From Candidatus Omnitrophota bacterium (GTDB taxonomy: Bacteria > Omnitrophota > Gorgyraeia > Gorgyraeales > Gorgyraeaceae): a stretch of 51,479 nucleotides of DNA. The position numbers and the translations under genes are program-made. Location of the stretch: contig JAHJGB010000062.1 in NCBI GenBank assembly GCA_018824725.1, positions 1 to 51,479 of the forward strand, written 5' to 3'. A model generated the notes under the pieces. That model ran no database searches and was not told the origin of the DNA. It worked only from the letters and a program-made list of their open reading frames with translations. This document shows, in pieces, positions 4,157 to 51,479 of this stretch; within the stretch, counting starts at the first letter, position 1, and each line of letters begins with the position of its first letter.

Positions 4157-4176
4157 AATTATTTAATTTTGCGCTT

Positions 4177-4320
4177 GGGCCATTCGGCACTGAAATAATT
4201 TTGCCGTCCGCTGCGGTTTACGGCTCATTTTTTATACCGAAGGAAGTCTTGACGGTATAAAAACTTCGCCGTAATTCCTTGCGGACATTTGGCAAAATTT
4301 TTCTAATGTGCCTCAGACCC
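4177..4320 (-). repeat. Family D 150-nt multi-hairpin core, inverted copy without the outer hairpin
   Basis: The reverse complement aligns along its whole length with 23138..23289 and 32687..32838 (GGGTCTGAGGCACATTAGAAAAATTT...TTTTTATACCG..CGGTATAAAAA...). Confidence 0.85.
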
Positions 4321-4331
4321 AAGCACAAAAT

Positions 4332-5754
4332 CTATTTCCTTCTCCAGACGGTTCCGTCCTTTGCGTCTTCCAATATAACGCCTACTTCTTCTAACTCTTT
4401 TCTAATCCTATCGGCTTCTTTGAAATCCTTATTTTTTCTTGCTATATCTCTCTTCTTAATAAAATTCTCTATTTCTTCTTTGCTTATTTTAACTTTATAT
4501 ACATTAACCCTTGCAATCAAATCCGCAGTTCCTCGGTGCATCAGCAATTCCTCTGATAATCCCAAAACCACTGCCAAACCAATCAATGTCTTTTTTGCAT
4601 AACCTAATTTTTCTCTGTTTTCTATATTTTTATTAATAAACAATATTAGTTCAAAAATAATACCCAGCGCTTGAGCTGTATTAAAATCATCATCCATAGC
4701 TTCTTCAAATCTTGAGCAGTATTTATCAACATCTTTGTCGGAACTATTTTCTACTTTTATATTTTTAAGTTTACCTATTAATATATCAATACGGTCGTAG
4801 GCTTTTTTCGCCTCTTCCATTTTTTCCCATGAAAAATCCACAGGATGGGAATAATGCGTCTGCAAAAATAATATTTTCAATACGTCAGCTGGGTATTTGG
4901 CCAATATATCTTCTATGGTGATAAAATTCCCCAGCGATTTGGCCATCTTTTCTTTATTGATGGTTAAAAGGCCGTTGTGCATCCAGTAACGCGCGAATTT
5001 ATTGCCTGCGCCTTCTGACTGCGCAACTTCATTCTCGTGATGCGGGAAAACCAGGTCTATGCCGCCTCCGTGTATGTCAAACTCGCCTCCCAGAATATCA
5101 GAACTCATCACCGAGCATTCTATATGCCATCCCGGCCTGCCGTTTCCCCATGGACTTTTCCATGAAGACTCGCCTTCTTTTGCGGATTTCCATAAAGTAA
5201 AATCCAGCGGGTCTTTTTTATTCTCCCCGGGAGCTATCCTAGCGCCTGATTCCAGCATCTCAAAACTCTGATTGGATAATTTCCCGTAACCATCAGCCTT
5301 CCGCACATCAAAATACACATCGCCGCCTGATGCGTAAGCTACTTCGTGCTCGATCAGTATTTTTATGAAATCTATCATCTTTTCTATATACTCTGTGGCC
5401 TTCGGCTCTTTATCAGGATGCATGATCCCGAGCCTTTCCATGTATTCGTGGTAGACTTTGAGATATTTGTCAGAAACCTTTTTTACGGCGCTGTTTAAAT
5501 CCTCTCCCTTGAATTCTTCTTTTGCCTTATTGATTATTTTATCGTCTACGTCTGTCACATTCCTGACAAATTTAACCTTATAGCCTCTGTATATAAAATA
5601 ACGGCGGACAACATCGAATGCGTAAGCGCTTCTCGCGTGCCCTATATGCGGGATATCGTAAACAGTCGGCCCGCAGACATACATGCTGACCCTGCCTTCT
5701 CTGATAGGCTGGAATTCTTCTTTTTTTTCTTGTAAGCGTATTATATATTTTCAT
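4332..5754 (-). CDS. cysS: Cysteine--tRNA ligase, reading frame broken by one extra A in an A8 run (plus-strand T8 at 5721-5728)
   Basis: ORF 5578..5760 gives [11 protein letters not shown], then goes out of frame. With A7 it reads [42 protein letters not shown] and joins ORF 4332..5684. HIGH and KMAKS motifs are present. Confidence 0.9.
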
Positions 5755-5775
5755 ACCCATTTTAAAATATCCTTG

Positions 5776-5921
5776 TTAATCGCTGAACTACGCGGAACTC
5801 CTCGATAAGCTCGGGGTAAACTCCACGCGGAACTACGCTGAAGCTAAACTCTAACTTCTGCGTATTTCCGCGTCTGTTCCGAGCGAAGCGAGGAACAGCT
5901 TCCGTGTTATTCCGCGATTAA
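5776..5921. repeat. Family C MITE-like element with TTAATCGC...GCGATTAA ends
   Basis: Shares GAACTACGCTGAAG..TAAC..CCGCGTCTGTTCCGAGCGAAGCGAGGAACAGCTTCCG with 12879..12991. Has terminal inverted repeats and an internal 7-bp-stem hairpin. Confidence 0.8.
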
Positions 5922-6392: not shown

Positions 6393-6412
6393 AAAACACT
6401 CCTTTGGAGAGC

Positions 6413-6449
6413 ATGGGAGTCCGACTCCCTATGGGAGTCGGACTCCCAT
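6413..6449. repeat. Family A REP-like hairpin
   Basis: ATGGGAGTCCGACTCCC-TAT-GGGAGTCGGACTCCCAT, a perfect 17-bp stem. Confidence 0.9.
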
Positions 6450-7144: not shown

Positions 7145-7165
7145 ATATTTAAAAAATATGTTAGC

Positions 7166-7290
7166 TTAAAAGTAAAAACGAAAAAGTCAAAACCACAATT
7201 AAAAATTCAAAACTTTACTATTTTTGTTTTCCGTTTTTTTAAATTTTAACTTTTGAGTTTCAGTTTTGCCTTTTTACTTTTAACTTTTTA
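7166..7290. repeat. Family B A-tract/T-tract inverted repeat
   Basis: AAAAGTAAAAACGAAAAAGTCAAAACCACAATTAAAAATTCAAAAC ... TTAAATTTTAACTTTTGAGTTTCAGTTTTGCCTTTTTACTTTTAAC. Overlaps the stop codon of the PIN/TRAM gene. Confidence 0.85.
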
Positions 7291-8295
7291 CTTCCTTGTG
7301 TTTTCCAAAAGTTTTCCAAAAATCATCCTGCCGGCTGCTGTCTGAAGCACGCTGCCCACTACCACATTTACGTTCTGGCCTATTAATCTCCTGCCGTTAT
7401 CCACTACTATCATTGTGCCGTCTTCCAGATACCCTACTCCCTGATTGTATTCCTTGCCTTCTTTGATAAGCCTTGTCTCAATCATTTCTCCGGGTAAAAC
7501 TACCGGCCTCAAGGAATTCGCAAGCTCATTAACATTCAACACCCTTATGCCCTGTATCTCTGAAACCTTATTCAGGTTATAATCGTTTGTGAATATCTTT
7601 GCGCTCAGGACTTTGGCCAGCTTTACTAGCTTCAGATCCACTTCTTTGATATCCGAGAAATCATCGTTATGTATCTTAACATCTATATTGGGATTTTTCT
7701 GGAGCTTTCCGAGTATATCGAGGCCTCTTCTCCCGCGTTCGCGCTTGAGGGAATCCGCAGAATCAGCTATCTGCTGCAATTCCTTTAATACAAAACGCGG
7801 GACTATGAATTTCCCATCCAGAAAACCTGTCTTGCATATATCCGCAATTCTGCCGTCTATAATAACGCTTGTATCCAGCAGTATCATCTCGTCTTTCTGG
7901 TCCTGCCTTGAAAATTTTACATAAGGTACTATTATATTAAACTCGTCCCTGCCTCTTATGGCCATGATCATGCCCAGATAGCAGAATACAAGTGTCAGCA
8001 CAACTCGCAAGGAATACACAAGATTTTTATCCAAAGATATAAGCGCAATGGTATCAGATACCAGCTTCGCCATTATGAGGCCGAATAACAGGCCGAAAAC
8101 AGCTGACGAAAGGCCCCGGACAGACACCTTCCTCGTGGTAAACTCTAGAATAATTATGAGTATGGCTATTAAAAAACCTATCGATGCGCCCAGCACGCTG
8201 AAATCAGCTGTGCCTGCCTGCACAAACGAGCCTATCTGAAAACCTATTATAACGCTGAGTATCACAAAGAATATACGTATAAAAATTAATGTCAT
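7288..8295 (-). CDS. Membrane-anchored PIN/TRAM domain protein (YacL-like)
   Basis: 335 aa. About 4 N-terminal TM helices, a PIN-like segment (ILLDTSVIIDGR) and a C-terminal TRAM-like barrel. The yacL-ispD-ispF order matches Bacillus. Confidence 0.75.
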   Translation of the reverse strand: MTLIFIRIFFVILSVIIGFQIGSFVQAGTADFSVLGASIGFLIAILIIILEFTTRKVSVRGLSSAVFGLLFGLIMAKLVSDTIALISLDKNLVYSLRVVLTLVFCYLGMIMAIRGRDEFNIIVPYVKFSRQDQKDEMILLDTSVIIDGRIADICKTGFLDGKFIVPRFVLKELQQIADSADSLKRERGRRGLDILGKLQKNPNIDVKIHNDDFSDIKEVDLKLVKLAKVLSAKIFTNDYNLNKVSEIQGIRVLNVNELANSLRPVVLPGEMIETRLIKEGKEYNQGVGYLEDGTMIVVDNGRRLIGQNVNVVVGSVLQTAAGRMIFGKLLENTRK

Positions 8296-9836: not shown

Positions 9837-9844
9837 AGCTTTGA

Positions 9845-9896
9845 ATGATGGGAGTCGGGCTTCCATCATTAGTGATGGAAGCCCGACTCCCATCAT
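9845..9896. repeat. Family A REP-like hairpin (24-bp stem)
   Basis: ATGATGGGAGTCGGGCTTCCATCA-TTAG-TGATGGAAGCCCGACTCCCATCAT, perfect. Confidence 0.9.
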
Positions 9897-9909: not shown

Positions 9910-10953
9910 TTAGAATAATTCTTTTTGCGATTCTTTCTTATACGCTATCTTCAGATGATCATACGCCAGTTTTGTGACTTCCCTACCCCTGGGCGTCCTT
10001 TTCAAAAATCCTATCTTTAATAAAAATGGCTCCACCACATCCACTATGGTGTCGCTCTCTTCATTAAGCGTTGCTGCAAGCGATTCTATGCCCACAGGCC
10101 CGCCGTCATAAAAATCAATTATCGCCTTCATGACTTTCCTGTCTATATCGTCCAGGCCCGCGGAGTCTATCCCGTGCGACGCAAGGCCTGCTATGGCACT
10201 TTCTTTATCTATTTTTTTATTGCCTTTCACTTCGCTGTAATCCCTGACCCTTCTAAGAAGCCTATTAGCCACGCGGGGAGTGCCGCGTGAACGGCCGGCA
10301 ATCTCAATAGCAGCATCTTTATCAAGAGGTATGCTTAAAAGCTCACTAGACCGCTCTATTATCTTCACGAGGTCCTCTGTCTCATAAAACTCAAAATGAT
10401 AAAACATCCCGAACCTGCTGCGTAAAGGAGCGCTTAATAATCCTGCGCGGGTCGTGGCTCCGATAAGCGTGAATCTTTTCAGGTTGAACTTTATGGTCTT
10501 TGCGTAAGGCCCTTTATCTATAAGAAAATCTATCTGATAGTTCTCCATCGCAGGATATATAAATTCCTCCACAACCTTCGAAAGCCTGTGTATCTCGTCT
10601 ATAAAAAGTACATCGCCCTCTCCGAGATTGGTAAGAATACCTATCAGGTCTCCGGCTCTTTCTATTGCAGGGCCTGAGGTGGCTGTAATCTTGGAGCCCA
10701 TCTCGCGGCTTATTATATGGGCAAGCGTAGTTTTGCCTAAACCCGGAGGCCCTGAAAGCAAAATGTGCTCAAGGCCTTCCTTTCTTTTTTTGGCTGCCTT
10801 CATTGCGATATTTACATTATCAATCACATGTTTCTGGCCTACGAAATGCTTTAAGCTGTCAGGCCTGAGCGATATATTAAATACAACCTCTTCCTCTGCT
10901 TCCTGGCCAGTAATCAACTGCTCGCGGTCATCATTCATTTCATTCTTAGACAT
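9910..10953 (-). CDS. ruvB: Holliday junction branch migration ATPase RuvB
   Basis: 347 aa. Walker A GPPGLGKTT, Walker B LFIDEIHRL, sensor TTRAGLLSAPLRSRFG. Confidence 0.95.
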   Translation of the reverse strand: MSKNEMNDDREQLITGQEAEEEVVFNISLRPDSLKHFVGQKHVIDNVNIAMKAAKKRKEGLEHILLSGPPGLGKTTLAHIISREMGSKITATSGPAIERAGDLIGILTNLGEGDVLFIDEIHRLSKVVEEFIYPAMENYQIDFLIDKGPYAKTIKFNLKRFTLIGATTRAGLLSAPLRSRFGMFYHFEFYETEDLVKIIERSSELLSIPLDKDAAIEIAGRSRGTPRVANRLLRRVRDYSEVKGNKKIDKESAIAGLASHGIDSAGLDDIDRKVMKAIIDFYDGGPVGIESLAATLNEESDTIVDVVEPFLLKIGFLKRTPRGREVTKLAYDHLKIAYKKESQKELF

Positions 10954-12078: not shown

Positions 12079-12857
12079 GGAAATATAAAATAAAATAACG
12101 CGGTAAAAAGACAATCAGCCGCGATTATCAAAATAAACGATATAACAACAGATCGGGTTGTTGCCTTTCCCACACCCTCGGCCCCGCCCTCTGTAATAAA
12201 GCCTTCATAGCATGAAACTATGCATATAATGACCGCAAATATAAATGACTTAAAAAGCCCTGTGAATAAATCCTTGAACGCTAGTGTATCAAATGTCATT
12301 TTCCAGTATATCGTAGAGCCTATAAGAAGTTTATAAACGCCTATCATGTAACCGCCTATAATGCCTATAAAATCAGCGTAAACAGTCAATAAGGGAAGCA
12401 TGATGCATAACGCGAGAAATCTCGGCACAACCAGATATTTCACAGGGTTTGCTGCAAGGGTCCTCAGTGCGTCTATCTGCTCGCTCACTTTCATAGTCCC
12501 GAGTTCTGCGGTGATGCTGGCTCCTACTCTTCCGGCAATAACAAGCGCTGTTAAAACAGGCCCGAGTTCCCTCAGCATGGAAAGCGCGACAAGGCTTGAT
12601 ATATACATCTGCGCGTTCATCTTTGTCAACTGATACGCGCTTTGAAGCGCCAGCACCATGCCTGTAAAAAACGCCACCATGAAAACTATGGGAAAACTCA
12701 TGACGCCTATCTTATGCATCTGGATAACCCATTCTTTTTTTCTGAAAGGCGGGACAAATACCTGGAATATAGTGCCGACCATCAGATTAAATGTGCCGCC
12801 TATGTAAACGAAGAAATTCAGGGCTTTTATTCCGAGATTATTTATCCACTCTTTCAT
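12075..12857 (-). CDS. mlaE: ABC transporter permease (MlaE/YrbE family)
   Basis: 260 aa polytopic membrane protein with MlaE-type length and hydrophobicity pattern. mlaF and mlaD lie 2-3 kb downstream. Confidence 0.75.
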   Translation of the reverse strand: MKEWINNLGIKALNFFVYIGGTFNLMVGTIFQVFVPPFRKKEWVIQMHKIGVMSFPIVFMVAFFTGMVLALQSAYQLTKMNAQMYISSLVALSMLRELGPVLTALVIAGRVGASITAELGTMKVSEQIDALRTLAANPVKYLVVPRFLALCIMLPLLTVYADFIGIIGGYMIGVYKLLIGSTIYWKMTFDTLAFKDLFTGLFKSFIFAVIICIVSCYEGFITEGGAEGVGKATTRSVVISFILIIAADCLFTALFYFIFP

Positions 12858-12878
12858 ATTAATCCTTAAAGTATCGTG

Positions 12879-12991
12879 TTAATCGCTGAACTACGCGGAA
12901 TATTACGCAGAACTACGCTGAAGTTAAACGTTAACTTCCGCGTCTTTCCGCGTCTGTTCCGAGCGAAGCGAGGAACAGCTTCCGCACAGTT
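12879..12991. repeat. Family C MITE-like element (shorter copy)
   Basis: Same ends and core as 5776..5921, but lacks the internal CTCCTCGATAAGCTCGGGGTAAACTCCACGCGGAA segment. Confidence 0.8.
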
Positions 12992-13000
12992 CCGCGATTA

Positions 13001-16597: not shown

Positions 16598-16623
16598 TTT
16601 AAACCTCCTAAATTATGCGATAA

Positions 16624-16757
16624 CTCAAAAGTAAAAACGCAAAAGTCAAAACCACAACTAAAAATTCAAAACTTTAATTTTCTTTACTTGTTTACCATTT
16701 CTTAATTTTAACTTTTGAGTTTTGGTTTTACCTTTTTACTTTTGACTTTTTACTTTA
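16624..16757. repeat. Family B A-tract/T-tract inverted repeat
   Basis: CTCAAAAGTAAAAACGCAAAAGTCAAAACCACAACTAAAAATTCAAAAC ... TTTTAACTTTTGAGTTTTGGTTTTACCTTTTTACTTTTGAC. Lies between mcsB and clpC. Confidence 0.85.
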
Positions 16758-18326: not shown

Positions 18327-18343
18327 AAAACCCCCTTATCTAA

Positions 18344-18457
18344 TTCAAAAGTAAAAACGAAAAAGTCAAAACTACAATTAAAAATTCAAAACCTCAGTTT
18401 TTTTAAATTTTAACTTTTGAGTTCTGGTTTTGCCTTTTTACTTCTAACTTTTTACTT
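18344..18457. repeat. Family B A-tract/T-tract inverted repeat
   Basis: TTCAAAAGTAAAAACGAAAAAGTCAAAACTACAATTAAAAATTCAAAAC ... TTTTAACTTTTGAGTTCTGGTTTTGCCTTTTTAC. Lies between ilvE and mcsA. Confidence 0.85.
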
Positions 18458-18460
18458 AAA

Positions 18461-20004: not shown

Positions 20005-20012
20005 GTCGTTAC

Positions 20013-20120
20013 GGCACACTAAAGTGTGCCCTACAATTCTGTCGCAAAGGCCTTCATGAGCACCTTATCGTAAGGGAGGTTTAAACCTCCCTTACGATAA
20101 GGTATTCTCGGCCTTTGCCT
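20013..20120 (-). repeat. Family E stop-to-start intergenic cassette
   Basis: GGCACAC-TAAA-GTGTGCC + CTACAATTCTGTCGCAAAGGCCTTCAT + an 18-bp-stem variable hairpin + ATTCTCGGCCTTTGCC. It fills the lolE-lolD gap exactly. Confidence 0.85.
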
Positions 20121-21302
20121 TTATTCATATCTGAGCGCTTCCACCGGCTCCATTTTTGCTGCCTGCCAGGACGGGTAAAGCGTTGATAATAAACTTATGA
20201 GCATCGCCGCAGCTATAACTGTTATTGAATCCAACAGCTCCAGGTTAACAGGCAGTCTGTCTATATAATAAATATCCTTGGGCAGTTGTATAAATTGATA
20301 TGTCTTTAATAAATACGAGAGGCCGAAGCCTCCTATGGCTCCCAGAACAGTCCCTGCAAAACCTATCAAAAAACCGTCCAGCATAAATATCTTTCTTATG
20401 CTTCTATTGTCAGCGCCTATTGATTTTAGTATGCCTATGTCTTTTGTCTTTTCCATTACCATCATTATGAGCGTGCTGGCTATATTGAAGCAGGCCACCA
20501 CCACAATAAGCGCGAGTATTATAAACATGGTTATCTTTTCAAGCTTCAGCGCACTGAAAAGGTTTTTGTTCAACTCAGACCAACTTCTGACCCAGTAATC
20601 AAACCCTATTTTTTCCTGAACATTTTTTTTTATGCTGTCTGCCCTGTTCACGTCATCCACCCTCACGCCTATGCCGCCTGCTACATTTCCTGTGGCATAA
20701 AAGGCCTGAGCGCCTTCAAGGTTTGTGAACACAAGGTTCATGTCATATTCAAACATTCCTGAATTAAATATGCCTGCTATCTTAAAGCTTTTCGGCTTGG
20801 GATCTGCCGCAGAAATAAGAGAAATAACATCCCCTATTTTTAAACCCAGTCTTAAAGAGAGCTCTTTTCCGATCAGGACAGTGTCTTTTTTAACTTCTAT
20901 CGTGCCGGATTCCAGATATTTTTGTATATTAGTGACGTTCTTTTCTCTTACCGGGTCTATGCCTCTTAATATCAGGCCCAAGACCTGTTCATCCTGCCTT
21001 ATTAAAGCCTGGCCGTTTATAAAAGGCGAACTTGCTTTTACATGGGGTATCTTATTTATCTCTGCTACAAGGCCGTTATAATCAGTTATCCCGCCTTCTT
21101 TTTCAATTATTATATGCGAATTTGTGCCGACTATCTTTTCGCGGAGGTCATTGTCAAAACCGCTCATAACAGCCAGCACCACAATAAGCGCTGTCACGCC
21201 CAGGGCTACGCCCATTATCGATATAAAGCTTATAATGGAAATAAACTTTTCCTTGCGCCTCGATATCAGATATCTAAAGCTGATCCACAATTCATATGGC
21301 AT
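20121..21302 (-). CDS. Lipoprotein-releasing system permease (LolC/E, FtsX family)
   Basis: 393 aa. TM1, a large periplasmic domain, then three C-terminal TM helices of FtsX type. Adjacent to lolD. Confidence 0.85.
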   Translation of the reverse strand: MPYELWISFRYLISRRKEKFISIISFISIMGVALGVTALIVVLAVMSGFDNDLREKIVGTNSHIIIEKEGGITDYNGLVAEINKIPHVKASSPFINGQALIRQDEQVLGLILRGIDPVREKNVTNIQKYLESGTIEVKKDTVLIGKELSLRLGLKIGDVISLISAADPKPKSFKIAGIFNSGMFEYDMNLVFTNLEGAQAFYATGNVAGGIGVRVDDVNRADSIKKNVQEKIGFDYWVRSWSELNKNLFSALKLEKITMFIILALIVVVACFNIASTLIMMVMEKTKDIGILKSIGADNRSIRKIFMLDGFLIGFAGTVLGAIGGFGLSYLLKTYQFIQLPKDIYYIDRLPVNLELLDSITVIAAAMLISLLSTLYPSWQAAKMEPVEALRYE

Positions 21303-22799: not shown

Positions 22800-22865
22800 A
22801 GGGATCCTTCGTCGCTTTACTCCTCAGGATGAGCAGTTAATACTATAAAAATGCCTGACTGCTCA

Positions 22866-22895
22866 ATTATATATTATATGCTATATAGGTGTCAA
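22866..22895 (-). promoter_or_regulatory. Sigma70-like promoter upstream of lysS
   Basis: On the minus strand: TTGACA (22895..22890), 18 nt spacer, TATAAT (22871..22866). About 65-nt leader with SD GAAGGA before the ATG. Confidence 0.5.
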
Positions 22896-22931
22896 TATAA
22901 ATAGGCTACGCTTGGGTAAGATTTTACATAA

Positions 22932-23356
22932 TTACCAGCCCTGGCTAGCCTACGAAAAGACGCTCGTCCGCCCCAGCGAGGCGGACTTCGCTCCGCGGCT
23001 GATTCTCGCCCTTCGCGGAGTTTACCCTTCGCGGAGTTTACCCTGAGCCCTTCGCTGCGCTCAGGGTAAACTCCGCGAAGGGCTCCTCAGGACCAGGTCG
23101 AGACTTGACGAAACGTCTGGGCTCACCCCGTTTCTGGGCTGGGGTCTGAGGCGCATTAGAAAAATTTCGGCAAGAGTCCGCAAGGAATTACGGCGAAGTT
23201 TTTATACCGTCAAGACCACCTTCGGTATAAAAAATGAGCCGTAAGCCGTAGCGAACGGCGAAATTATTTCAGCGCCGAACGGCCCCAGCCCAGAGGCAGG
23301 GCACCGTGCCCGCTCGAAAAAGCGATGTTTTTCTTTAGGCTAGCTAGGGCTGGTAA
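22932..23356 (+). repeat. Family D large nested hairpin element (full copy with core 23138..23289)
   Basis: Outer stem TTACCAGCCCTGGCTAGCCTA.GAAAAG / TTTTC.TTAGGCTAGCTAGGGCTGGTAA. Conserved blocks are shared with 32582..32905. A perfect 24-bp-stem hairpin is nested at 23025..23082. Confidence 0.85.
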
Positions 23357-23370
23357 GTATTAATTATGAC

Positions 23371-24762
23371 TTATTTGGCATTTACTACTGCAGTCTTATA
23401 ACCGGTAACAAAAAGAAGGGAATTTTTTTCTGATACGCTGTCGTATATTCCGCCTCTTGAATCTATGAAACAGGAATAACCTGTATTGGCGCACCTGACA
23501 ACAGGAACCCTGTTTTCAATAGCCCTGAAAACTGAATTCGCTGCGTGCTGGTAAGCTGCCCCGCTTTTGCCATACCACGCGTCATTTGTAATAACAATCA
23601 GGAATTTAGCGCCGTTTTTAACAAACTTTCTGGAAATTTCCGGAAAAATGTCTTCAAAACAAATCAAGACAGAGAATTTAACAGTTTGACTGAAGGCTGA
23701 AGGCTGAAGGCTGAAGGCTTTAAAGTCTTTTCCAGGTGTAAATTCTCCGAGTTCTCCAAGGATTAATTTATGAAATGCCGGAAATTTATTCGAAAACGGA
23801 ACATATTCTCCGAATGGGACAAGATGGATTTTGTCATATTTATTTGTCATGCTGCCTTCCGGAGAAATAAGCGCAGCGCTATTAAAATATTTTTCATCTT
23901 TTTCCGTATTCACTCCTATTAAGATGGGAATCTTTGTTTCTTTTACCAGGGTTAAAATTTTCTCTGTCATATCTTCGTCTATTTCAAAGAATCCCGGAAA
24001 AGATGTCTCAGGCCAGACTATTAGATCAGCGCTCTCCAAGGCCGCCATCTTTGTAAGCGCAATATATTTTTCAATTATCATATCCTGAGCCTTTGGATCC
24101 CACTTAAGCTCCTGGGGGATATTTCCCTGGATAACTGAAACTCTTACACCGTTCCCATAACCTCTCTCATTTACCCTCATTATCCCATATCCAAACACAG
24201 CTATTAAAACCAGCGCTGTTATTATTACCTCCCTGAAAGATTTTTTAAATGTCCTGTAAATAGCGACATTTACCATCATTACCGTAAAAGACACGCCGTA
24301 CACGCCTGAAAAATCAGCTATCTGAATCAGGGGCAGATTTTTATACTGCGAATAGCCTAAAGAAAGCCATCCGAAACCCATGATGGGAAGATGAGACTGA
24401 ATATATTCAAGAAACGACCAAATTAAAGGAATAGCTATAAGCCTTAAGCTATAAGCCTTAAGCCGAAAACAGATTAAGCCCAAAACTCCAAAATATAAAG
24501 CAAGATAGAGACAAAGGATTATTAAACCTGCTACTGTCACATGATACAACCAGTATAAAGTCCCTAAATAAAAAATAAATCCACTAATATAAAAAATTAA
24601 AAATGCCTCTTTGGGAGATTTATTCTCAATTGCAAAGAAAAGCAGGATAAAACCGATAAAGGCGAGAAAACTGAGGTTAAAATTCGGAAAAGAAAAGACT
24701 AAAAATAAACTAGCGAAAGAAATTAAAATAATATTTCTTATCATTTGGTAGTATTTTACCAT
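23371..24762 (-). CDS. lnt: Apolipoprotein N-acyltransferase
   Basis: 463 aa. Polytopic N-terminal half plus a CN-hydrolase domain (WPETSFP ... VLICFEDIFPE). Two short tandem repeats lie in the coding sequence. Confidence 0.9.
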   Translation of the reverse strand: MVKYYQMIRNIILISFASLFLVFSFPNFNLSFLAFIGFILLFFAIENKSPKEAFLIFYISGFIFYLGTLYWLYHVTVAGLIILCLYLALYFGVLGLICFRLKAYSLRLIAIPLIWSFLEYIQSHLPIMGFGWLSLGYSQYKNLPLIQIADFSGVYGVSFTVMMVNVAIYRTFKKSFREVIITALVLIAVFGYGIMRVNERGYGNGVRVSVIQGNIPQELKWDPKAQDMIIEKYIALTKMAALESADLIVWPETSFPGFFEIDEDMTEKILTLVKETKIPILIGVNTEKDEKYFNSAALISPEGSMTNKYDKIHLVPFGEYVPFSNKFPAFHKLILGELGEFTPGKDFKAFSLQPSAFSQTVKFSVLICFEDIFPEISRKFVKNGAKFLIVITNDAWYGKSGAAYQHAANSVFRAIENRVPVVRCANTGYSCFIDSRGGIYDSVSEKNSLLFVTGYKTAVVNAK

Positions 24763-28151: not shown

Positions 28152-28158
28152 ATATTTT

Positions 28159-28243
28159 GGCACACTAAAGTGTGCCCTACAGTTTTGTCGCAAAGGCCTT
28201 CATAAACAGGCACATTGAAATGTGCCTATTCTCGGCCTTTGCC
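28159..28243 (-). repeat. Family E stop-to-start intergenic cassette
   Basis: GGCACAC-TAAA-GTGTGCC ... GCAAAGGCC ... GGCACAT-TGAA-ATGTGCC ... GGCCTTTGCC. Starts 1 nt after the prfB stop and ends 7 nt before the secA ATG. Confidence 0.85.
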
Positions 28244-28244
28244 T

Positions 28245-29345
28245 TTAATTATTTTTTGTTTTCCATTTTAAGAATGTTTCCATAAATTCATCCAGCCCGC
28301 CGCTCATTACAGTATCAACATTGGATGTCTCGTGATCAGTCCTATGGTCCTTTACCATCGAATAGGGGTGCATAACGTACGAACGAATCTGGCTTCCCCA
28401 TTCTATCTTCTGCTTCTTGGCATATTCCTGTTCCAGTTCTTTCTTCTTCTCATCCATCTTCTTTTCATAAAGCTTTGCCTTTAATACCTTCATAGCGAGG
28501 GTTTTATTTTTAAACTGCGATCTTTCTTTCTGGCACTGCACGACAATACCGGTAGGGACATGCGTAATCCTGACTGCAGTTTCTAACTTATTTACATTCT
28601 GGCCGCCCTTGCCTCCAGCCCTGTAAGTATCGATCTTTAAATCAGATTCATTGATATCTATGACTATATCATCCGCAATTTCCGGTATAACATCCACGGA
28701 AGCAAAAGACGTATGCCGTCTTTTATTTGAGTCAAAAGGGGAAATCCTGACAAGCCGATGCACGCCTTTTTCCGATTTAAGGTACCCGTATGCATAAGGC
28801 CCTGTGATAATAAGGTCCGCGCTCTTCAAGCCCGCTTCTTCGCCCTGCAGCATATCAATCATCTCAATTTTATATCCTTTTTTTTCAGCCCACATCGAAT
28901 ACATCCTTAAAAGCATGCTGGCCCAGTCGCAGGATTCAGTCCCGCCCGCGCCTGAATGGATACTGACGATAGCATTGCTTATATCGCTTTCGCCGTTTAA
29001 AAGGCTCTTAAATTCCAGGCCTTCTAATTTTTTAGCCAGCTTATCCAGAGATTCCAAAACGTCTTTTATCGAACCTTTGTCCTCTTCATCCAGCACAACT
29101 GCCAGTTCCCCCAGCTCATCAAGTTCTTTCCTGGCTTCGAAATAGGGGTCCAGCATAGCGCGCACTGTCTTTAATTCCTGGATAATAGGCCTTGATTTCT
29201 CCTGGTCATCCCAGAAACCCGGATTCGCAAGCTGGGTTTCCAATTCTTTAAGCCTGATTTCGTTCTTATCTATACTAAGATACATTTTCATATCAGAAAG
29301 CTTAGCTTCTGCGTCTTTTAATTTTATTTTGATGTCATCTAACAT
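28245..29345 (-). CDS. prfB: Peptide chain release factor 2, uninterrupted (no programmed +1 frameshift site)
   Basis: SPF tripeptide (RISPFDS) and GGQ (GKGGQNVNK). Start taken at MLDDIKIKL (ATG 29345). Confidence 0.9.
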
Positions 29346-29698
29346 ATGAGATTTTGGCACACTAAAGTGTGCCCTACAATTTTGTCGCAAAGACCTTCAT
29401 AAACAGGCACATTGAAATGTGCCCATTCTCGGTCTTTGCCTTTACCTTCTATCTCCAGCAATTTCTTTTTCAAATCCTTACCAAACGCATATTCTCCGAT
29501 AGAGCCGTCTGAATGCACGACTCTGTGGCATGGGACTATTACAGGAAAGGGATTTTTATTAAGCGCATTGCCCGCTGCCCTGGCAGCAGCAGGCCTTCCG
29601 GCCTTTTTAGCCACCCAGGCATATGTCCTTACCTCTCCAAGAGGTATTTTCTTTACAACAGTATATACCTTTTTCTGAAACGAAGTCAATTGTTTCAT
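29339..29698 (-). CDS. ogt: Methylated-DNA--protein-cysteine methyltransferase (DNA-binding/active-site domain only) with a repeat-encoded C-terminal extension
   Basis: PCHRVV active site. The conserved domain ends near ...KKKLLEIEG. The last ~34 codons ([34 protein letters not shown]) are family E sequence. Confidence 0.8.
29356..29440 (-). repeat. Family E stop-to-start intergenic cassette
   Basis: Nearly identical to 28159..28243. Ends 10 nt before the prfB ATG and is read through by the ogt ORF. Confidence 0.85.
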
Positions 29699-32581: not shown

Positions 32582-32905
32582 TTCTTTCTGACAGGCGGGC
32601 CTACGAAAAGACGCTCGCTTGCCCCAGCGAGGCAACCTTCGCTCCGCGTCGATACTAAGCAAAACGTCTGGGCTCGTCCTGTGGCAGCTGGGGTCTGAGA
32701 CGCATTAGAAAAATTTCGACAAAAATCCACAAGGAATTACGGTGAAGTTTTTATGCCGTCAAGACTACCTTCGGTATAAAAAATGAGCCGTAAACTGTAG
32801 CGGACGACGAAATTATTTCAGCGCCGAATGGCCCCAGCTACCGCAAGACACCATGCCCGCTCGAATCGACGAGGCTTTTCTTTAGGCCTGCCGGCCAGAA
32901 AGAAA
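32582..32905 (+). repeat. Family D large nested hairpin element (full copy with core 32687..32838)
   Basis: Outer stem TTCTTTCTGACAGGCGGGCCTA.GAAAAG / CTTTTC.TTAGGCCTGCCGGCCAGAAAGAA. The internal blocks match 22932..23356. Confidence 0.85.
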
Positions 32906-32925: not shown

Positions 32926-32954
32926 TTGACATAATTAATAGCGTATGCTATTTT
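32926..32954 (+). promoter_or_regulatory. Sigma70-like promoter of rpsT
   Basis: TTGACA (32926-32931), 17 nt spacer, TATTTT (32949-32954). SD AAGGAG lies 6 nt before the ATG. Confidence 0.5.
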
Positions 32955-34326: not shown

Positions 34327-34353
34327 GATTGACAAGTTCAAAAACAATCTGTT

Positions 34354-34463
34354 AAGTAAAAAGTCAAAAGTAAAAAGGCAAAATTATTTAGTCTTAGGTT
34401 TACAGCTTATAGGTTTTTTGAATTTTTAATTGTAGTTTTGACTTTTTCGTTTTTACTTTTGAG
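34354..34463. repeat. Family B A-tract/T-tract inverted repeat (opposite orientation)
   Basis: GTAAAAAGTCAAAAGTAAAAAGGCAAAA ... TTGAATTTTTAATTGTAGTTTTGACTTTTTCGTTTTTACTTTTGAG. Confidence 0.85.
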
Positions 34464-34472
34464 TTTAGTATT

Positions 34473-36054: not shown

Positions 36055-36064
36055 ATGCCTTTAG

Positions 36065-36094
36065 ATTATACCATTATATATATGGAAAAATCAA
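36065..36094 (-). promoter_or_regulatory. Candidate sigma70-like promoter giving a near-leaderless bamD-like transcript
   Basis: On the minus strand: TTGATT (36094..36089), 18 nt spacer, TATAAT (36070..36065). The ATG at 36054 is only 10 nt past the -10 box. Confidence 0.4.
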
Positions 36095-36108
36095 TAAATT
36101 TAAAAAGG

Positions 36109-36168
36109 ATGATGGAAGCCCGGGGCGATGGAAGCCCGACTCCCTATGGGAGTCGGGCTTCCATCATA
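36109..36168. repeat. Family A REP-like hairpin with a partial direct duplication of the left arm
   Basis: TGATGGAAGCCC, then GATGGAAGCCCGACTCCC-TAT-GGGAGTCGGGCTTCCATC. Confidence 0.9.
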
Positions 36169-36175
36169 ACAAAAA

Positions 36176-37447
36176 TTATAAAGATGGGTTATAATAGCCC
36201 ATCTTGAGGCTGGGGAAAGATTTTTTCAGGGAAGTTATCAATTGCCTGACGCCTACCATTGCAGAAAGCTGGCCAGAGTATTTTATAATCTTGAAATAAT
36301 GAAGCGGGTCAAAGTTCAGGTTGCGCCATTGGATCATGTCTATTTTATAAGTTTCTATAAATTTCTTGAGCGCTGCGAATTCATCCTTGGAATCTGTAAA
36401 TCCAGGCATGGTCAGATAATTAATCGATACAAAGCCTTTTTTCTGCTTGGCTGTTTTTATAGACTTTAAAACATCCTGAAAATTATACCCGGCCGGCTTG
36501 TAATACCTCTCGTAATATTCTTTTCTGACGCTATTCATGCTTACCCTTATGCTATCCAAGCCTGTATCAAACAACCTGGCTAATGCCTCAGGCCTGGAGG
36601 CATTAGTATTCATATTTATAGTTCCCTTATGGGTTTTGGTCCTGATTAACCTTATGGATTCTTCAATTAATTCCGCCTCCAGCAAAGGTTCGCCTTCGCA
36701 GCCCTGGCCAAAACTAAGTAGTAGGCGGTCGCGACCGCCTACTACTGTATTTTTAACATTACAGATATGAAATAAGGCTAGTTCAGCCACTTCTTCAGGA
36801 GAAGGCGTAAATTTTATCCTGGGCTGGGTCTCTAGCGAAATACACCCTGCGCAGTTGGCATTGCAGGAAGGAGATACGGGTAAAGGGCATTCTTCTCTGG
36901 ATAAGAAAAAATTCTGCGCACCGGGACAGCCATGGATCATAGCGCAGTCTTGCAGATGCCTGATAAGCCTGTTGGCAGGGAATAATTTTTTTATTTTTAT
37001 TGCATTTTTTCTGACGGAATCGATATTTATAAATTTCGGGTCATGCCTGGAGGATTTATCAACTCTTATTGCCGTAACATAGATATCGCCTTTATAAAAA
37101 CCAGCTAGAGTATAGCAGTAAAGCGGCAGGGCCTTTCCACCTACGCAGCGGGATTTATCCCACCGCGTAGGTGGAAAATGGTAGGCAGCACTGTAAGTGC
37201 CTGTAAAAGCAGGCGCCACAAACGCAGCAACAGCAAAATAATTTTCCAATGCCTTGAATTTTCCGCCGACCCTGTCATATCCCACAGGCATTCTTCCGGG
37301 CAGCATAAAAAGCCTGCTCGCTTCGGGTATCTTAATGAATTCCCTCTTCCCAGGCCTGAAAAAACAACCTGCCTTCATGCCTGCGGCTTCCAGTTCAGGA
37401 ATGTCAAATATTTTGCCTGATTTATCTGATACGAGTAGGTGAAACAC
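36176..37447 (-). CDS. Radical SAM enzyme of unknown function
   Basis: 423 aa with a GTG start. CNANCAGC (CxxxCxxC) cluster and a downstream GCEGEPLL glycine-rich motif. The ~190-aa N-terminal domain is uncharacterised. Confidence 0.8.
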   Translation of the reverse strand: MFHLLVSDKSGKIFDIPELEAAGMKAGCFFRPGKREFIKIPEASRLFMLPGRMPVGYDRVGGKFKALENYFAVAAFVAPAFTGTYSAAYHFPPTRWDKSRCVGGKALPLYCYTLAGFYKGDIYVTAIRVDKSSRHDPKFINIDSVRKNAIKIKKLFPANRLIRHLQDCAMIHGCPGAQNFFLSREECPLPVSPSCNANCAGCISLETQPRIKFTPSPEEVAELALFHICNVKNTVVGGRDRLLLSFGQGCEGEPLLEAELIEESIRLIRTKTHKGTINMNTNASRPEALARLFDTGLDSIRVSMNSVRKEYYERYYKPAGYNFQDVLKSIKTAKQKKGFVSINYLTMPGFTDSKDEFAALKKFIETYKIDMIQWRNLNFDPLHYFKIIKYSGQLSAMVGVRQLITSLKKSFPSLKMGYYNPSL

Positions 37448-46086: not shown

Positions 46087-46202
46087 AAATAATAAAGGCA
46101 GACTAAAGTCTGCCCTACAATTTTGTCGCAAAGACCTTCCATAAATACCTTCTGTAGGGCAGGTTTAAACCTGCCCTACAGAAGGTATTCTCGGCCTTTG
46201 CC
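46087..46202 (-). repeat. Family E cassette (variant copy)
   Basis: GGCAGAC-TAAA-GTCTGCC (compensatory changes relative to GGCACAC/GTGTGCC) ... 17-bp-stem hairpin ACCTTCTGTAGGGCAGG/CCTGCCCTACAGAAGGT ... GGCCTTTGCC. Abuts the TAG stop of the 46204 gene. Confidence 0.85.
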
Positions 46203-46203
46203 T

Positions 46204-48009
46204 CTATTCTTCTTTCCAGAACTTAAACGGCTTCTTTTTCTCAGGTTCCGGCTTTATAACCCCTGTTTCGCTTACAGTCCAGGTCCTTTCCGCAGGAACA
46301 GGGTCTATTTCATCTATATCTACTTTGGAATTCTTATTTACATCTTTCGCAGCCTGGACCTTAAAATAATGATTCCCGTCTTTCAGGTCTTTTTTGGACA
46401 CCGAGGTATCCCTGGACCAGACAGACCATTCCTCATCATCAAATTTCCATCTGAACACGCAATCATCTACGGTGCCTTTAAAGGTAAAAAGCGCTTCTTT
46501 TGACTTTGTCAATAAACTCGGCCCGCTTGTGATTATGGTGTCAGGCGCTATTATTATAAGTTCTATGGTATCGCTGATAACCTCTGATTCGTTTCCTGCT
46601 GTATCCTTAAACTTTACATAAACCTTGCGCGTGCCGCTTATAGGAGTCAGCATCCAGTTTTCCTTCTTGGTCTTAAACTGTACCCATTGTTCATTGTCAA
46701 AAACCCCATCGTTTGAAACCACCATACCGCTAACCTCTGTAGTGGAATCGCTGGCTCCAAACACAAGATTGACATAAACAGAATTGGTAACAGCATCCTG
46801 ATTATTTATTATTATATAACCTGTCGGGCCTTTTGTATCAACAGTAAAGCTCCAGACAACCTGAGAGGTTTTATTGCCTACCAGATCAGCCACTTCAATG
46901 GATACCACATTGCTGCCTTCGCTGAGAGGCGTAGACGGGATATATACTATGCTCTGGCTGTTCTCATCATATGCCGCGTCCACCACGGATTTGTTTATCT
47001 TCATGCTTATAGCGTTTGGATCCACGCCGCTCTTGTCGTCACTGGCTGCTATGGTAATCGTAGGCCTGTCAGACGCCAGCGTTGAGCCTTTTTCCGGAGA
47101 ATAATTCCCTATAACAGGGCTTCCTCTGTCTATCCATAATTCATAAGAAGCCATCTCTCCCCAATTGCCGGCTGAATTCTCAGCCTTAAGATTAAACACC
47201 CTGACGCCGTCCCCTAGCAGATCATCTGGAGTTTGATAAAAAGCGCCTGATGTGTCAGCCTTGTCATCAGGTATATATCCCCAGGCATAACTATACCCTA
47301 TGGGTTCCACTCCAGTCACAGGATATTCCCATGACATATAAGGATCTCCGCATCCCTGCCATAATTTTGAAGGGATATCTTTTCCGCCTGGCGCAGTCTT
47401 TGCCCATATTACAGGCATATCTACCTTGCCTGTTGTAAGCTTAAACCCGTTAGCAGCTGTTTCCCATCCTGAGTAATCGTATCCGTCGCATACTCTTACC
47501 CGCCATTTATAATCTATATAACCTTCGGTGGTAGGGAGTATAGGCGTGGTGTACTGCTGGGAATTGGTTTTAATAATACCGGAATCAACGTCTAATGTTT
47601 TAAAGTTATCCTTGGATAACTGAACCTGATAATAACGCTGAGGATCCTGATCCTTGTCTGTAACTACCCATTTCAATGTAAGAGGATTGTCAAGCGTAGC
47701 CTGGCCGTCGTTATATGCTAATATACTTATATCAGGGATAGCGTTTTTGGTGGGAAGCCACCCGCCGTATATTTTATAACTGGCGCCTGTAGCAACATTG
47801 GTGCCTAATGGGTAGCCCACGCTGTTCTCTGAGTTATAGCTCTTTGAAAACCCGCTCGAGCCTCCTCCGTCTGCCACCGCTGTATGCAGCTTATAATTTT
47901 TACTGCTGGATATGCTGGCGCTTGCAATGCCTGTAAAAACAAAAAAGGCCGCTATAAAAAATAAAGCGGTCTTTGAAATAAAATATCTTCTGAATTTAAT
48001 CCAATACAT
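46204..48009 (-). CDS. Secreted Ig-like/beta-sandwich multidomain protein
   Basis: Start taken at MYWIKFRRYF (ATG 48009), with signal peptide ...FVFTGIASA. Repeated Ig-like modules (e.g. SPEKGSTLASDRPTITIAASDDKSGVDPNAI...). Confidence 0.65.
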   Translation of the reverse strand: MYWIKFRRYFISKTALFFIAAFFVFTGIASASISSSKNYKLHTAVADGGGSSGFSKSYNSENSVGYPLGTNVATGASYKIYGGWLPTKNAIPDISILAYNDGQATLDNPLTLKWVVTDKDQDPQRYYQVQLSKDNFKTLDVDSGIIKTNSQQYTTPILPTTEGYIDYKWRVRVCDGYDYSGWETAANGFKLTTGKVDMPVIWAKTAPGGKDIPSKLWQGCGDPYMSWEYPVTGVEPIGYSYAWGYIPDDKADTSGAFYQTPDDLLGDGVRVFNLKAENSAGNWGEMASYELWIDRGSPVIGNYSPEKGSTLASDRPTITIAASDDKSGVDPNAISMKINKSVVDAAYDENSQSIVYIPSTPLSEGSNVVSIEVADLVGNKTSQVVWSFTVDTKGPTGYIIINNQDAVTNSVYVNLVFGASDSTTEVSGMVVSNDGVFDNEQWVQFKTKKENWMLTPISGTRKVYVKFKDTAGNESEVISDTIELIIIAPDTIITSGPSLLTKSKEALFTFKGTVDDCVFRWKFDDEEWSVWSRDTSVSKKDLKDGNHYFKVQAAKDVNKNSKVDIDEIDPVPAERTWTVSETGVIKPEPEKKKPFKFWKEE

Positions 48010-48082
48010 ATTTAAATCAATTGTACTGCAAAAAAATAAAAAATCAAGAATAATTTTTGGGATTAACTGCCCTAGCAATCAC

Positions 48083-48132
48083 TGATGGAAGTCCGACTCC
48101 CATCAGGATTGATGGGAGTCGGACTTCCATCA
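48083..48132. repeat. Family A REP-like hairpin (23-bp stem)
   Basis: TGATGGAAGTCCGACTCCCATCA-GGAT-TGATGGGAGTCGGACTTCCATCA, perfect. Confidence 0.9.
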
Positions 48133-48153
48133 TGCTTAGGCCCCCCTATAAAT

Positions 48154-51416: not shown

Positions 51417-51439
51417 GCATCCTTTTAATGAGTACTATG

Positions 51440-51476
51440 ATGGAAGCCCGACTCCCTATGGGAGTCGGGCTTCCAT
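51440..51476. repeat. Family A REP-like hairpin
   Basis: ATGGAAGCCCGACTCCC-TAT-GGGAGTCGGGCTTCCAT, a perfect 17-bp stem. Confidence 0.9.
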
Positions 51477-51479
51477 AAA

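Follow-up and report, generated by a model that had tools for sequence, protein, structure and literature searches.

A stretch of 51,479 nt from Candidatus Omnitrophota bacterium (assembly GCA_018824725.1, contig JAHJGB010000062.1; hereafter the window) carries, in the gap between lysS and lnt, a 425-nt nested hairpin element (22932-23356) which we interpret, with a probability of roughly 0.6, as a stack of hairpin repeats, each of them a distinct interspersed unit, of the MITE (miniature inverted-repeat transposable element), REPIN or bcr1 kind. In such a stack, an outer wrapper of ~170 nt, terminator-like at both exits, would enclose one or two optional small modules, including a private 24-bp hairpin, and would bear at its apex a rod of ~165 nt, the core. 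Core, wrapper and wrapper plus core are each found in multiple copies at unrelated intergenic sites and, as wrapper and core each occur independently, the 425-nt element is a composite and not a single RNA. The core is a rod-shaped repeat family of Omnitrophota, previously undescribed and of an already familiar bacterial kind. An earlier, sequence-only reading, whose placing of the element between lysS and lnt is borne out by the flanking genes, had left the choice between a functional RNA and a composite MITE. Of this reading, the composite nature and the covariation hold, whereas the 425 nt do not make up one RNA, and nothing in the evidence speaks for RNA rather than DNA.

Layers of the composite element

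Delimited by its outer inverted-repeat arms (22928-22961 and 23327-23360), the element, here called copy A, extends from 22928 to 23360 on the plus strand, and its ends do pair, as had been proposed, the arms being 34 nt long and 82% complementary. Inside these ends, and still on the plus strand, the 5' arm of the wrapper (22949-23003) is composed of CCTACGAAAAGACGCTCG, a side hairpin TCCGCC-CCAGCGA-GGCGGA (22967-22985) and then CTTCGCTCCGCG. It is followed by a variable module (23009-23082), in which the perfect 24-bp hairpin (23025-23048 with 23059-23082) and the 2x16-nt tandem duplication (23009-23040) are found exactly where the sequence-only reading had placed them, and by an optional module (23083-23127) of sequence CTCCTCAGGACCAGGTCGAGACTTGACGAAACGTCTGGGCTCACC. 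The core, with its helices P1-P6, occupies 23131-23295 (conserved interior 23145-23282; covariance model score 188 bits, E 3e-41), and the 3' arm of the wrapper, GCAGGGCACCGTGCCCGCTCGAA..CG..TTTTTCTTTAGG, closes the structure at 23296-23344.

A sister composite, copy B, is located at 32582-32905 on the plus strand, in the gap between murJ and rpsT, with a core at 32680-32844 that scores 169 bits. It shares the internal blocks previously listed for it, and the 152-nt cores of both copies (23138-23289 and 32687-32838) are 91% identical. Its distal outer stem was said to have another sequence and still to pair; the sequence is indeed unlike that of copy A, and the pairing is imperfect, at 15 of 20 positions.

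The small modules are not constant. The 74-nt hairpin and duplication module of copy A is missing in the orthologous element L003 (the labels in L designate the loci examined) and is shorter in L024. The optional module CTCCTCAGGACCAGGTCGAGACTTGACGAAACGTCTGGGCTCACC is found in copy A, L003, L024 and L028, partially in copy B, and is missing from most other wrappers. The private 24-bp hairpin also has an arm to which a 16-mer, GGAGTTTACCCCGAGC, is related; this 16-mer is observed in another repeat family, at 5809-5824, where it adjoins a two-copy repeat (5749-5920 and 12852-13000, 78-89% identity), suggesting that different repeat families have small modules in common.

The wrapper exists by itself. 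Its arms (CCTACGAAAAG... / ...GCCCGCTCGAA..CTTTTCTTTAGG) form a complete coreless hairpin in L005, L011, L031, L040 and L055, of about 120-160 nt and capped by a small private apex. The outer stems of the 425-nt element as a whole thus prove to be halves of another dispersed palindromic repeat, an outcome that the sequence-only reading had opposed to a functional RNA. The core, in turn, is found devoid of any wrapper in L030, L019, L059 and L062, and in a third copy of the window, copy C, described below. Within the window, the arms CCTACGAAAAGACGCTCG... and ...GCCCGCTCGAA..CGAGGCTTTTCTTTAGG are present only around copies A and B, the 5' arm recurring at 32600, and 16 further non-identical wrapper copies are found in the loci examined. 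In L004, the right wrapper arm lies, inverted, on the 5' side of a core. As wrapper and core are joined by identical junctions at many unrelated loci, the composite itself is a copied unit. A tandem unit is also observed at different loci (L005 6586-6780, L031 ~2200-2420, L040 4210-4400), made of a coreless wrapper, a conserved spacer of ~45 nt, AGCTAYAGCTTTACAGNANATTATATGTCTCT, and a standalone core; by inspection of the spacer at these three loci, no convincing -35/-10 spacing that would indicate an own promoter is seen. Finally, a classical MITE of ~66 nt, with terminal repeats CCCCGTTCCAAATCTA / TAGATTTGGAACGGGG and a duplicated TAAAC, interrupts the cores of L023, L031 and L040 at an identical position (e.g. 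L031 1971-2197), and takes the place of the core apex in L020 (9083-9252).

All these layers bear on the possibility that the whole 425 nt could be a single large structured RNA whose closing stem covaries, which we consider highly improbable. The plus strand does have a very stable fold (-236.4 kcal/mol, z -12.2 versus dinucleotide shuffles), and the outer stem, which differs between copies A and B, pairs in both. The reverse strand is nevertheless equally stable when folded (-234.7 kcal/mol, z -12.4), wrapper and core occur independently of each other, the 74-nt module can be missing from an orthologous copy, and the element measures anything from 123 to 391 nt depending on the copy.

The layout of the wrapper, an A-tract, G+C-rich hairpins and a U-tract (GAAAAG...structure...CTTTTCTTT), resembles that of a terminator-like repeat. 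The stem of its side hairpin varies between copies (TCCGCC/GGCGGA, GACGCC/GGCGTC, GTTGCC/GGCAAC) around a constant loop. On the minus strand of copy B, the side hairpin followed by CGTCTTTTCG is scored as terminator-like; there is no such call on the plus strand or for copy A. Given this layout and this module, it is plausible that the wrapper could be co-opted as a terminator or as an mRNA-end hairpin, by analogy with SPRITE.

A rod-shaped, covarying core

The structure of the core was deduced from the RNAalifold consensus of an alignment of 24 distinct cores, and reconsidered in a second alignment to which seven more divergent copies, retrieved with the covariance model, were added (31 distinct cores). 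The consensus is one long rod, made of six helices, P1-P6, and 58 pairs. Among the 24 cores, 97.7% of the cells contain standard pairs, versus 90.2% after partner shuffling, and the proportion of paired cells remains at 97.5-97.7% across the 24-31 distinct cores; when partners are slid by 1-3 columns, pairing falls to 37-44%. Changes on both sides affect 18 of the 58 pairs, a number reached by none of 500 shuffles, and 33 of the 58 once the divergent copies are included, even though the helix-7 changes of this second alignment stem from non-homologous, replaced apices and are not countable as compensatory evolution. The covariation claimed by the sequence-only reading is thus real, and is present beyond the outer stem.

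The fold that had been drawn on paper is retained for the most part, as the closing stem, GGCGC/GCGCC, the A/U stem, UUACGGC/GCCGUAA and the apical stem all belong to the consensus. Its two small branches, UCC-GCAA-GGA and CCGU-AGCGA-ACGG, do not: they are paired in 82% of cells, no more than in shuffled controls, and one of the pairs that they contain is disrupted in 12 of the 24 copies. Their place is taken by a helix formed at long range, GUCCGC/GCGGAC, with the covarying versions GUGCGC/GCGCAC and GCGCGC/GCGCGC; the core is a rod and not a multibranched structure. In half of the copies, P3 and P4 are separated by an additional A/U-rich side hairpin. Conservation of unpaired nucleotides is seen in UCUGA/GAAYGG between P1 and P2, in a tandem G·A beside P5 and in a 13-nt apical loop, UCAAGACNNCCUU; the distal P1 sequence varies between copies, and the model also finds variants in which the apex is replaced or deleted.

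Several known structures were considered for this rod and ruled out. By inspection, the UCUGAGG...CGAAA motif is not that of a hammerhead, as it contains CUGAGGC and not CUGANGA and has no Rfam match. Inspection likewise shows that the two G·A loops are not canonical K-turns, since their extra nucleotides are arranged as 1+2 or 4x4 and no 3-nt bulge is present on one strand. A rod of the 6S RNA or signal recognition particle type is dismissed by the lack of a central bubble and of an Rfam match, and by the existence of dozens of copies. Neither could the core be a T-box or another leader of lysS or cysS: copy A is antisense to lysS and upstream of the lysS promoter, copy C is downstream of cysS, so orientation is inconsistent, and other copies flank unrelated genes. 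More generally, Rfam 15 at gathering thresholds gives no match across the whole window, so that the Rfam comparison suggested by the sequence-only reading yields no family. At E<=10, a search of 22850-23420 retrieves only sub-threshold chance microRNA hairpins and a CRISPR repeat, and the only overlap with the core is the 11-nt edge of a mir-1205 match (15 bits for a gathering score of 75).

Copy C, which was absent from the sequence-only reading, was located by a 21-mer taken from the core. It is a core alone (4167-4331, minus strand, 186 bits), which begins 1 nt past the cysS stop codon, ends 11 nt before the tmk start codon and has the same orientation as both genes. Compared with copy A, it carries compensatory changes in three stems, GCTGGGG/CCCCAGC becoming GCTTGGG/CCCAAGC, GGCGC/GCGCC becoming GGCAC/GTGCC and TTTCG/CGAAA becoming TTTTG/CAAAA.

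Outside the window, a scan of species-representative genomes with a core 21-mer retrieves three metagenome-assembled genomes (MAGs) of Omnitrophota, PCTH01 (six contigs), JAPLMD01 (three) and JBAZEP01 (one), plus two chance matches. The PCTH01-type contigs are syntenic relatives of the window, at roughly 83-94% nucleotide identity. A scan of metagenomes with the apical-loop pattern adds ~25 further true copies, from groundwater and lake-sediment assemblies, along with G+C-rich chance matches. The MAGs concerned come from Crystal Geyser, Hainich groundwater or Lac Pavin. In the loci examined, the covariance model has 33 matches (31 distinct), every one on Omnitrophota contigs, and has none in the control loci that correspond to chance hits. 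A phage origin of the core is ruled out by the absence of any match in scans of viral contigs.

The core has three copies in the 51 kb of the window, and all its copies are intergenic, often 1-25 nt away from the neighbouring stop or start codons. Between co-directional genes, ~6 copies are in the sense and ~11-13 in the antisense orientation. No own promoter or terminator was found for core copies A, B and C, the promoters of neighbouring genes being outside the repeat. That of lysS (22866-22895, minus strand) is a sigma-70-type promoter, TTGACA-18-TATAAT, with 12/12 consensus positions; it lies between copy A and lysS and is kept at orthologous loci. Such a perfect consensus suggests that standard promoter rules would apply in this Omnitrophota lineage. 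A promoter-like site for rpsT is located at 32926-32954 on the plus strand, 20 nt to the right of copy B, and no promoter-like sequence was found near copy C.

Turnover at orthologous sites and the nature of the core

The fate of individual copies was followed at orthologous loci. Copy A has two orthologs, L003 and L024, with core interiors that are 97-98% identical; in L024, the 3' half of P1 comes from another subfamily, which makes it a chimeric copy. The ortholog of copy B (L022 4987-5151) is intact, with a core identity of 93.5%, i.e. differences at 9 of 138 interior positions. As these differences come together with eight stem positions at which copy B has A·C or G·U in place of a Watson-Crick pair, copy B is decaying. 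Read by eye, each of its differences from L022 is a transition, with G to A, as seen on the plus strand, predominating. Judging from these substitutions, copy B could be evolving as if released from whatever keeps the other copies uniform. Within a relative, paralogous cores are 98.6% identical and thus as similar as orthologs.

The cysS-tmk spacer, compared in relatives chosen by the identity of their Tmk protein, is occupied in very diverse ways. L062 (Tmk 86%) has a full core, with the locus-specific distal P1 of the window and the interior of another subfamily; L059 (87%) has a core with a different apex, L057 (89%) a degenerate one, L061 (84%) a relic that comprises just the 3' 35 nt, and L055 (94%) a coreless wrapper in reverse orientation. 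In L053 (96%) and L063 (74%), an unrelated perfect palindrome reaches over the cysS stop codon. These palindromes (L053 ~2440-2500, L063 ~9910-9990) are devoid of loop, 50-76 nt long and centred on TTTTTTAA/TTAAAAAA; their left arm holds the last cysS codons and the stop, and their right arm mirrors the gene sequence, a hint that palindromes could arise or lengthen in situ. The spacer at 36060-36186 is similarly variable, being occupied by a different palindrome in the window, by two core variants in L022, and by a relic, a wrapper and a core in L040. From all these orthologous comparisons, it emerges that copies reside at some sites for a long time, recombine with one another, decay and are replaced.

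One possibility raised by such palindromes is that the elements insert preferentially into the apical loops of existing hairpins, or that palindromes grow in place by fold-back copying of their flanks, either of which would make every layer complementary, including the copy-specific outermost stems. The outermost stems (TTACCAGCCCTGG, TTCTTTCTAACAGG, GGGGTTGGGCAGG and ATCGCTGCCTCTGG are among the types found) do have copy-specific sequences that pair at 13-19 of 20 positions. At each level, elements occupy the apices of other hairpins, GTCCTGCGGCA[core]TACCGCAGGAC without its core is a 9-bp hairpin with a 4-nt loop, and the palindromes extending over the cysS stop codon would fit as well. Against this, the same types of outer stem recur at unrelated loci (GGTTGGGCAGG in L006 and L055, TTGCCAGCCCTGGCAGG in many copies), which indicates that they travel with the element and are not derived from the target; the wrapper-core junctions are common to many copies, so that the composite itself was copied; and no filled and empty pair sharing a pre-existing hairpin was found. 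We therefore regard this mechanism as very unlikely.

According to the interpretation that we favour, a stack of separate repeats, the elements would spread as DNA, either as non-autonomous MITE- or REPIN-like elements or by recombination between copies. In its favour are the independence of the modules, the number of copies and their restriction to Omnitrophota, their intergenic position in both orientations, their turnover, decay and recombination at orthologous sites, stems that favour neither strand, and the precedent of bcr1 and SPRITE. The form seen by selection or by a mobilising enzyme would be the hairpin, as single-stranded DNA or as a cruciform, and the arms would consequently stay complementary even as the sequence of the termini drifts. 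The near identity of the core interiors would be kept up by gene conversion between the numerous copies. As the copies sit between genes and would be transcribed by read-through in either orientation, they are probably neutral-to-useful intercistronic or 3'-end RNA hairpins, like REP, SPRITE or Correia elements.

Several results weigh against this explanation. Neither a target-site duplication nor a conserved terminal inverted repeat was identified, the termini differing between copies and merely pairing, and no clean empty site was recovered at orthologous loci, so that mobility is deduced from turnover and not from an insertion event. All-against-all clustering of the open reading frames (ORFs) of 28 loci reveals no transposase or other recurrent protein near the copies, as only syntenic orthologs recur. 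The orthologous copy A cores retain 97-98% identity where the flanking lysS and lnt have no more than 74-87% at third codon positions, and the unpaired loops are conserved (UCUGA/GAAYGG, GA...GA by P5 and the 13-nt apical loop). Lastly, weak hints point to one strand of the core, here called sense: in 17 of 24 copies, P1 finishes on its inner side with a U·G, no other strand has the tandem G·A motifs, and the sense fold is the more stable one in 19 of 24 copies, with a mean difference of 4.4 kcal/mol. Gene conversion can explain the slow evolution of the core, as would purifying selection on an RNA; a purely selfish reading leaves both this slow evolution and the conserved loops unexplained.

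These sequence and strand biases, together with the strong covariation and with the maintenance of the cysS-tmk copy in sense orientation in several lineages, are the arguments for a bona fide structured non-coding RNA family, to which the core would belong, acting in cis in operon transcripts or in trans; such an RNA would be multi-copy by happenstance, with a structure maintained by selection on the transcript, and the wrapper would be an accessory module such as a terminator or insulator. This alternative seems to us rather unlikely. Stem pairs are 96% Watson-Crick, and G·U pairs (19) are about as frequent as A·C (14), so that no strand is favoured, a count which is not decisive for strand assignment. 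The copies have both orientations relative to transcription and carry no promoter or terminator of their own; they decay, are truncated or yield to unrelated palindromes in the closest relatives; their apex is exchanged or deleted in some of them, non-homologous apices account for part of the helix-7 covariation, and no Rfam family matches. Of the features of a structured RNA, covariation is thus found, whereas neither the strand-specific excess of G·U over A·C nor a defined transcription unit is. Overall, we lean weakly toward the sense strand of the core, and the evidence does not place an RNA above a DNA hairpin. The core might also be a new class of selected structured nucleic acid, restricted to a clade of Omnitrophota, either a rod RNA, bearing the conserved 13-nt apical loop and two loops of tandem G·A, that would bind a protein or act in trans, or the recognition hairpin of an undescribed hairpin-tip mobilisation system that would tolerate any paired termini; we hold this proposal to be unlikely as well.

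Known repeat systems and significance

The known systems closest to the core include REP and REPIN elements, which are, like the core, extragenic hairpin repeats present in both orientations and in many copies per genome, with arms that co-evolve so that the hairpin is preserved. Like the core, REPs are located between operon genes, where they stabilise upstream mRNA, and REPINs, which are symmetric doublets of a 20-35-nt REP, are mobilised by RAYT transposases. The core differs from them in being a 165-nt asymmetric rod with conserved internal loops, and does not have the REP unit. No RAYT gene was seen at the loci examined, the whole genome being outside this search. Nesting has precedents too, since IS1397/ISKpn1 and IS110-family elements insert into REP loops, and small dispersed repeats of Nostoc nest in other repeats. 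They resemble the layers described here by their position at the hairpin tips of other repeats; those cases, however, involve autonomous insertion sequences (ISs) or units of 21-27 nt, whereas here every layer is a non-coding hairpin of 60-170 nt.

A transcribed repeat in which compensatory changes are also known is bcr1, which, with related interspersed repeats, belongs to the Bacillus cereus group (PMC3184786). It is similar to the core in several respects: both are ~150 nt long, multi-copy, intergenic, patchily distributed between related strains, and have compensatory changes that keep a long duplex (PMC3184786). Unlike the core, bcr1 has flanking 5-bp direct repeats, none of which was found here; the two have no sequence similarity and belong to different phyla, and the core is distinguished by its nesting inside other hairpin repeats and by its exchangeable apex.

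MITEs are defined as small, non-coding, multi-copy elements (PMC3184786), and the core shares with them these features as well as its intergenic location, inverted termini, truncated and nested derivatives, and differences in presence or absence (PMC3184786), the occupancy of the cysS-tmk and 36060-36186 spacers differing between relatives. It departs from them in that its terminal sequences are not conserved between copies and no parent IS is identified. Neither copies A, B and C nor the wrappers show direct repeats at their ends, the exact position of which is not fixed in the absence of an empty site. The MITE with CCCCGTTCCAAATCTA ends and a TAAAC duplication, inside some of the cores, provides the classical contrast. 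The wrapper is best compared to SPRITE, which is listed among terminator-like repeats (PMC3184786): with its A-tract, its G+C-rich hairpins and its U-tract, and with terminator-like hairpin-plus-U-run modules at both exits, the wrapper resembles a dispersed repeat of this type. The wrapper is however longer (about 120-170 nt when empty) and accommodates other repeats in its apex, and its terminator activity is a prediction.

Other repeats are also observed in the window. REP-like, G+C-rich palindromes (GATGGRAGYCCGACTCCC..GGGAGTCGGRCTYCCATC), sometimes arranged as inverted doublets, are located at 8-45, 6412-6449, 9843-9896, 36127-36167, 48080-48133 and 51439-51479, and one of them fills a spacer where relatives have core elements. 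An A/T-rich dispersed repeat of ~120 nt (TCAAAAGTAAAAACGAAAAAGTCAAAAC ... TTTTAACTTTTGAGTT..GGTTTTGCCTTTTT), whose halves look roughly inverted, has 4-5 copies (1587-1711, 7154-7294, 16613-16756, 18333-18458 and 34352-34466). A further family begins with the hairpin GGCACACTAAAGTGTGCC, after which comes CTACAATTTTGTCGCAAAGGCCTTC; 3-4 copies of it are located at gene boundaries (20008-20126, 28154-28250, 29351-29444 and 46097-46209).

Omnitrophota are uncultured, mostly nano-sized bacteria. In the literature searched, we found no description of their non-coding repeat content, nor of repeats such as those reported here. In one clade, intergenic spacers are filled by several nested hairpin repeat families that turn over faster than the adjoining genes. 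This matters for operon architecture, as elements are found within a few nucleotides of the stop and start codons of housekeeping genes, and for the annotation of MAGs, as nested hairpin repeats generate spurious ORFs. The core, which passes covariation tests without being demonstrably an RNA, is also a cautionary case for RNA discovery. If selection were found to act on it as an RNA, or if it turned out to be a hairpin of transposition whose termini are free in sequence, it would be a new family on either list.

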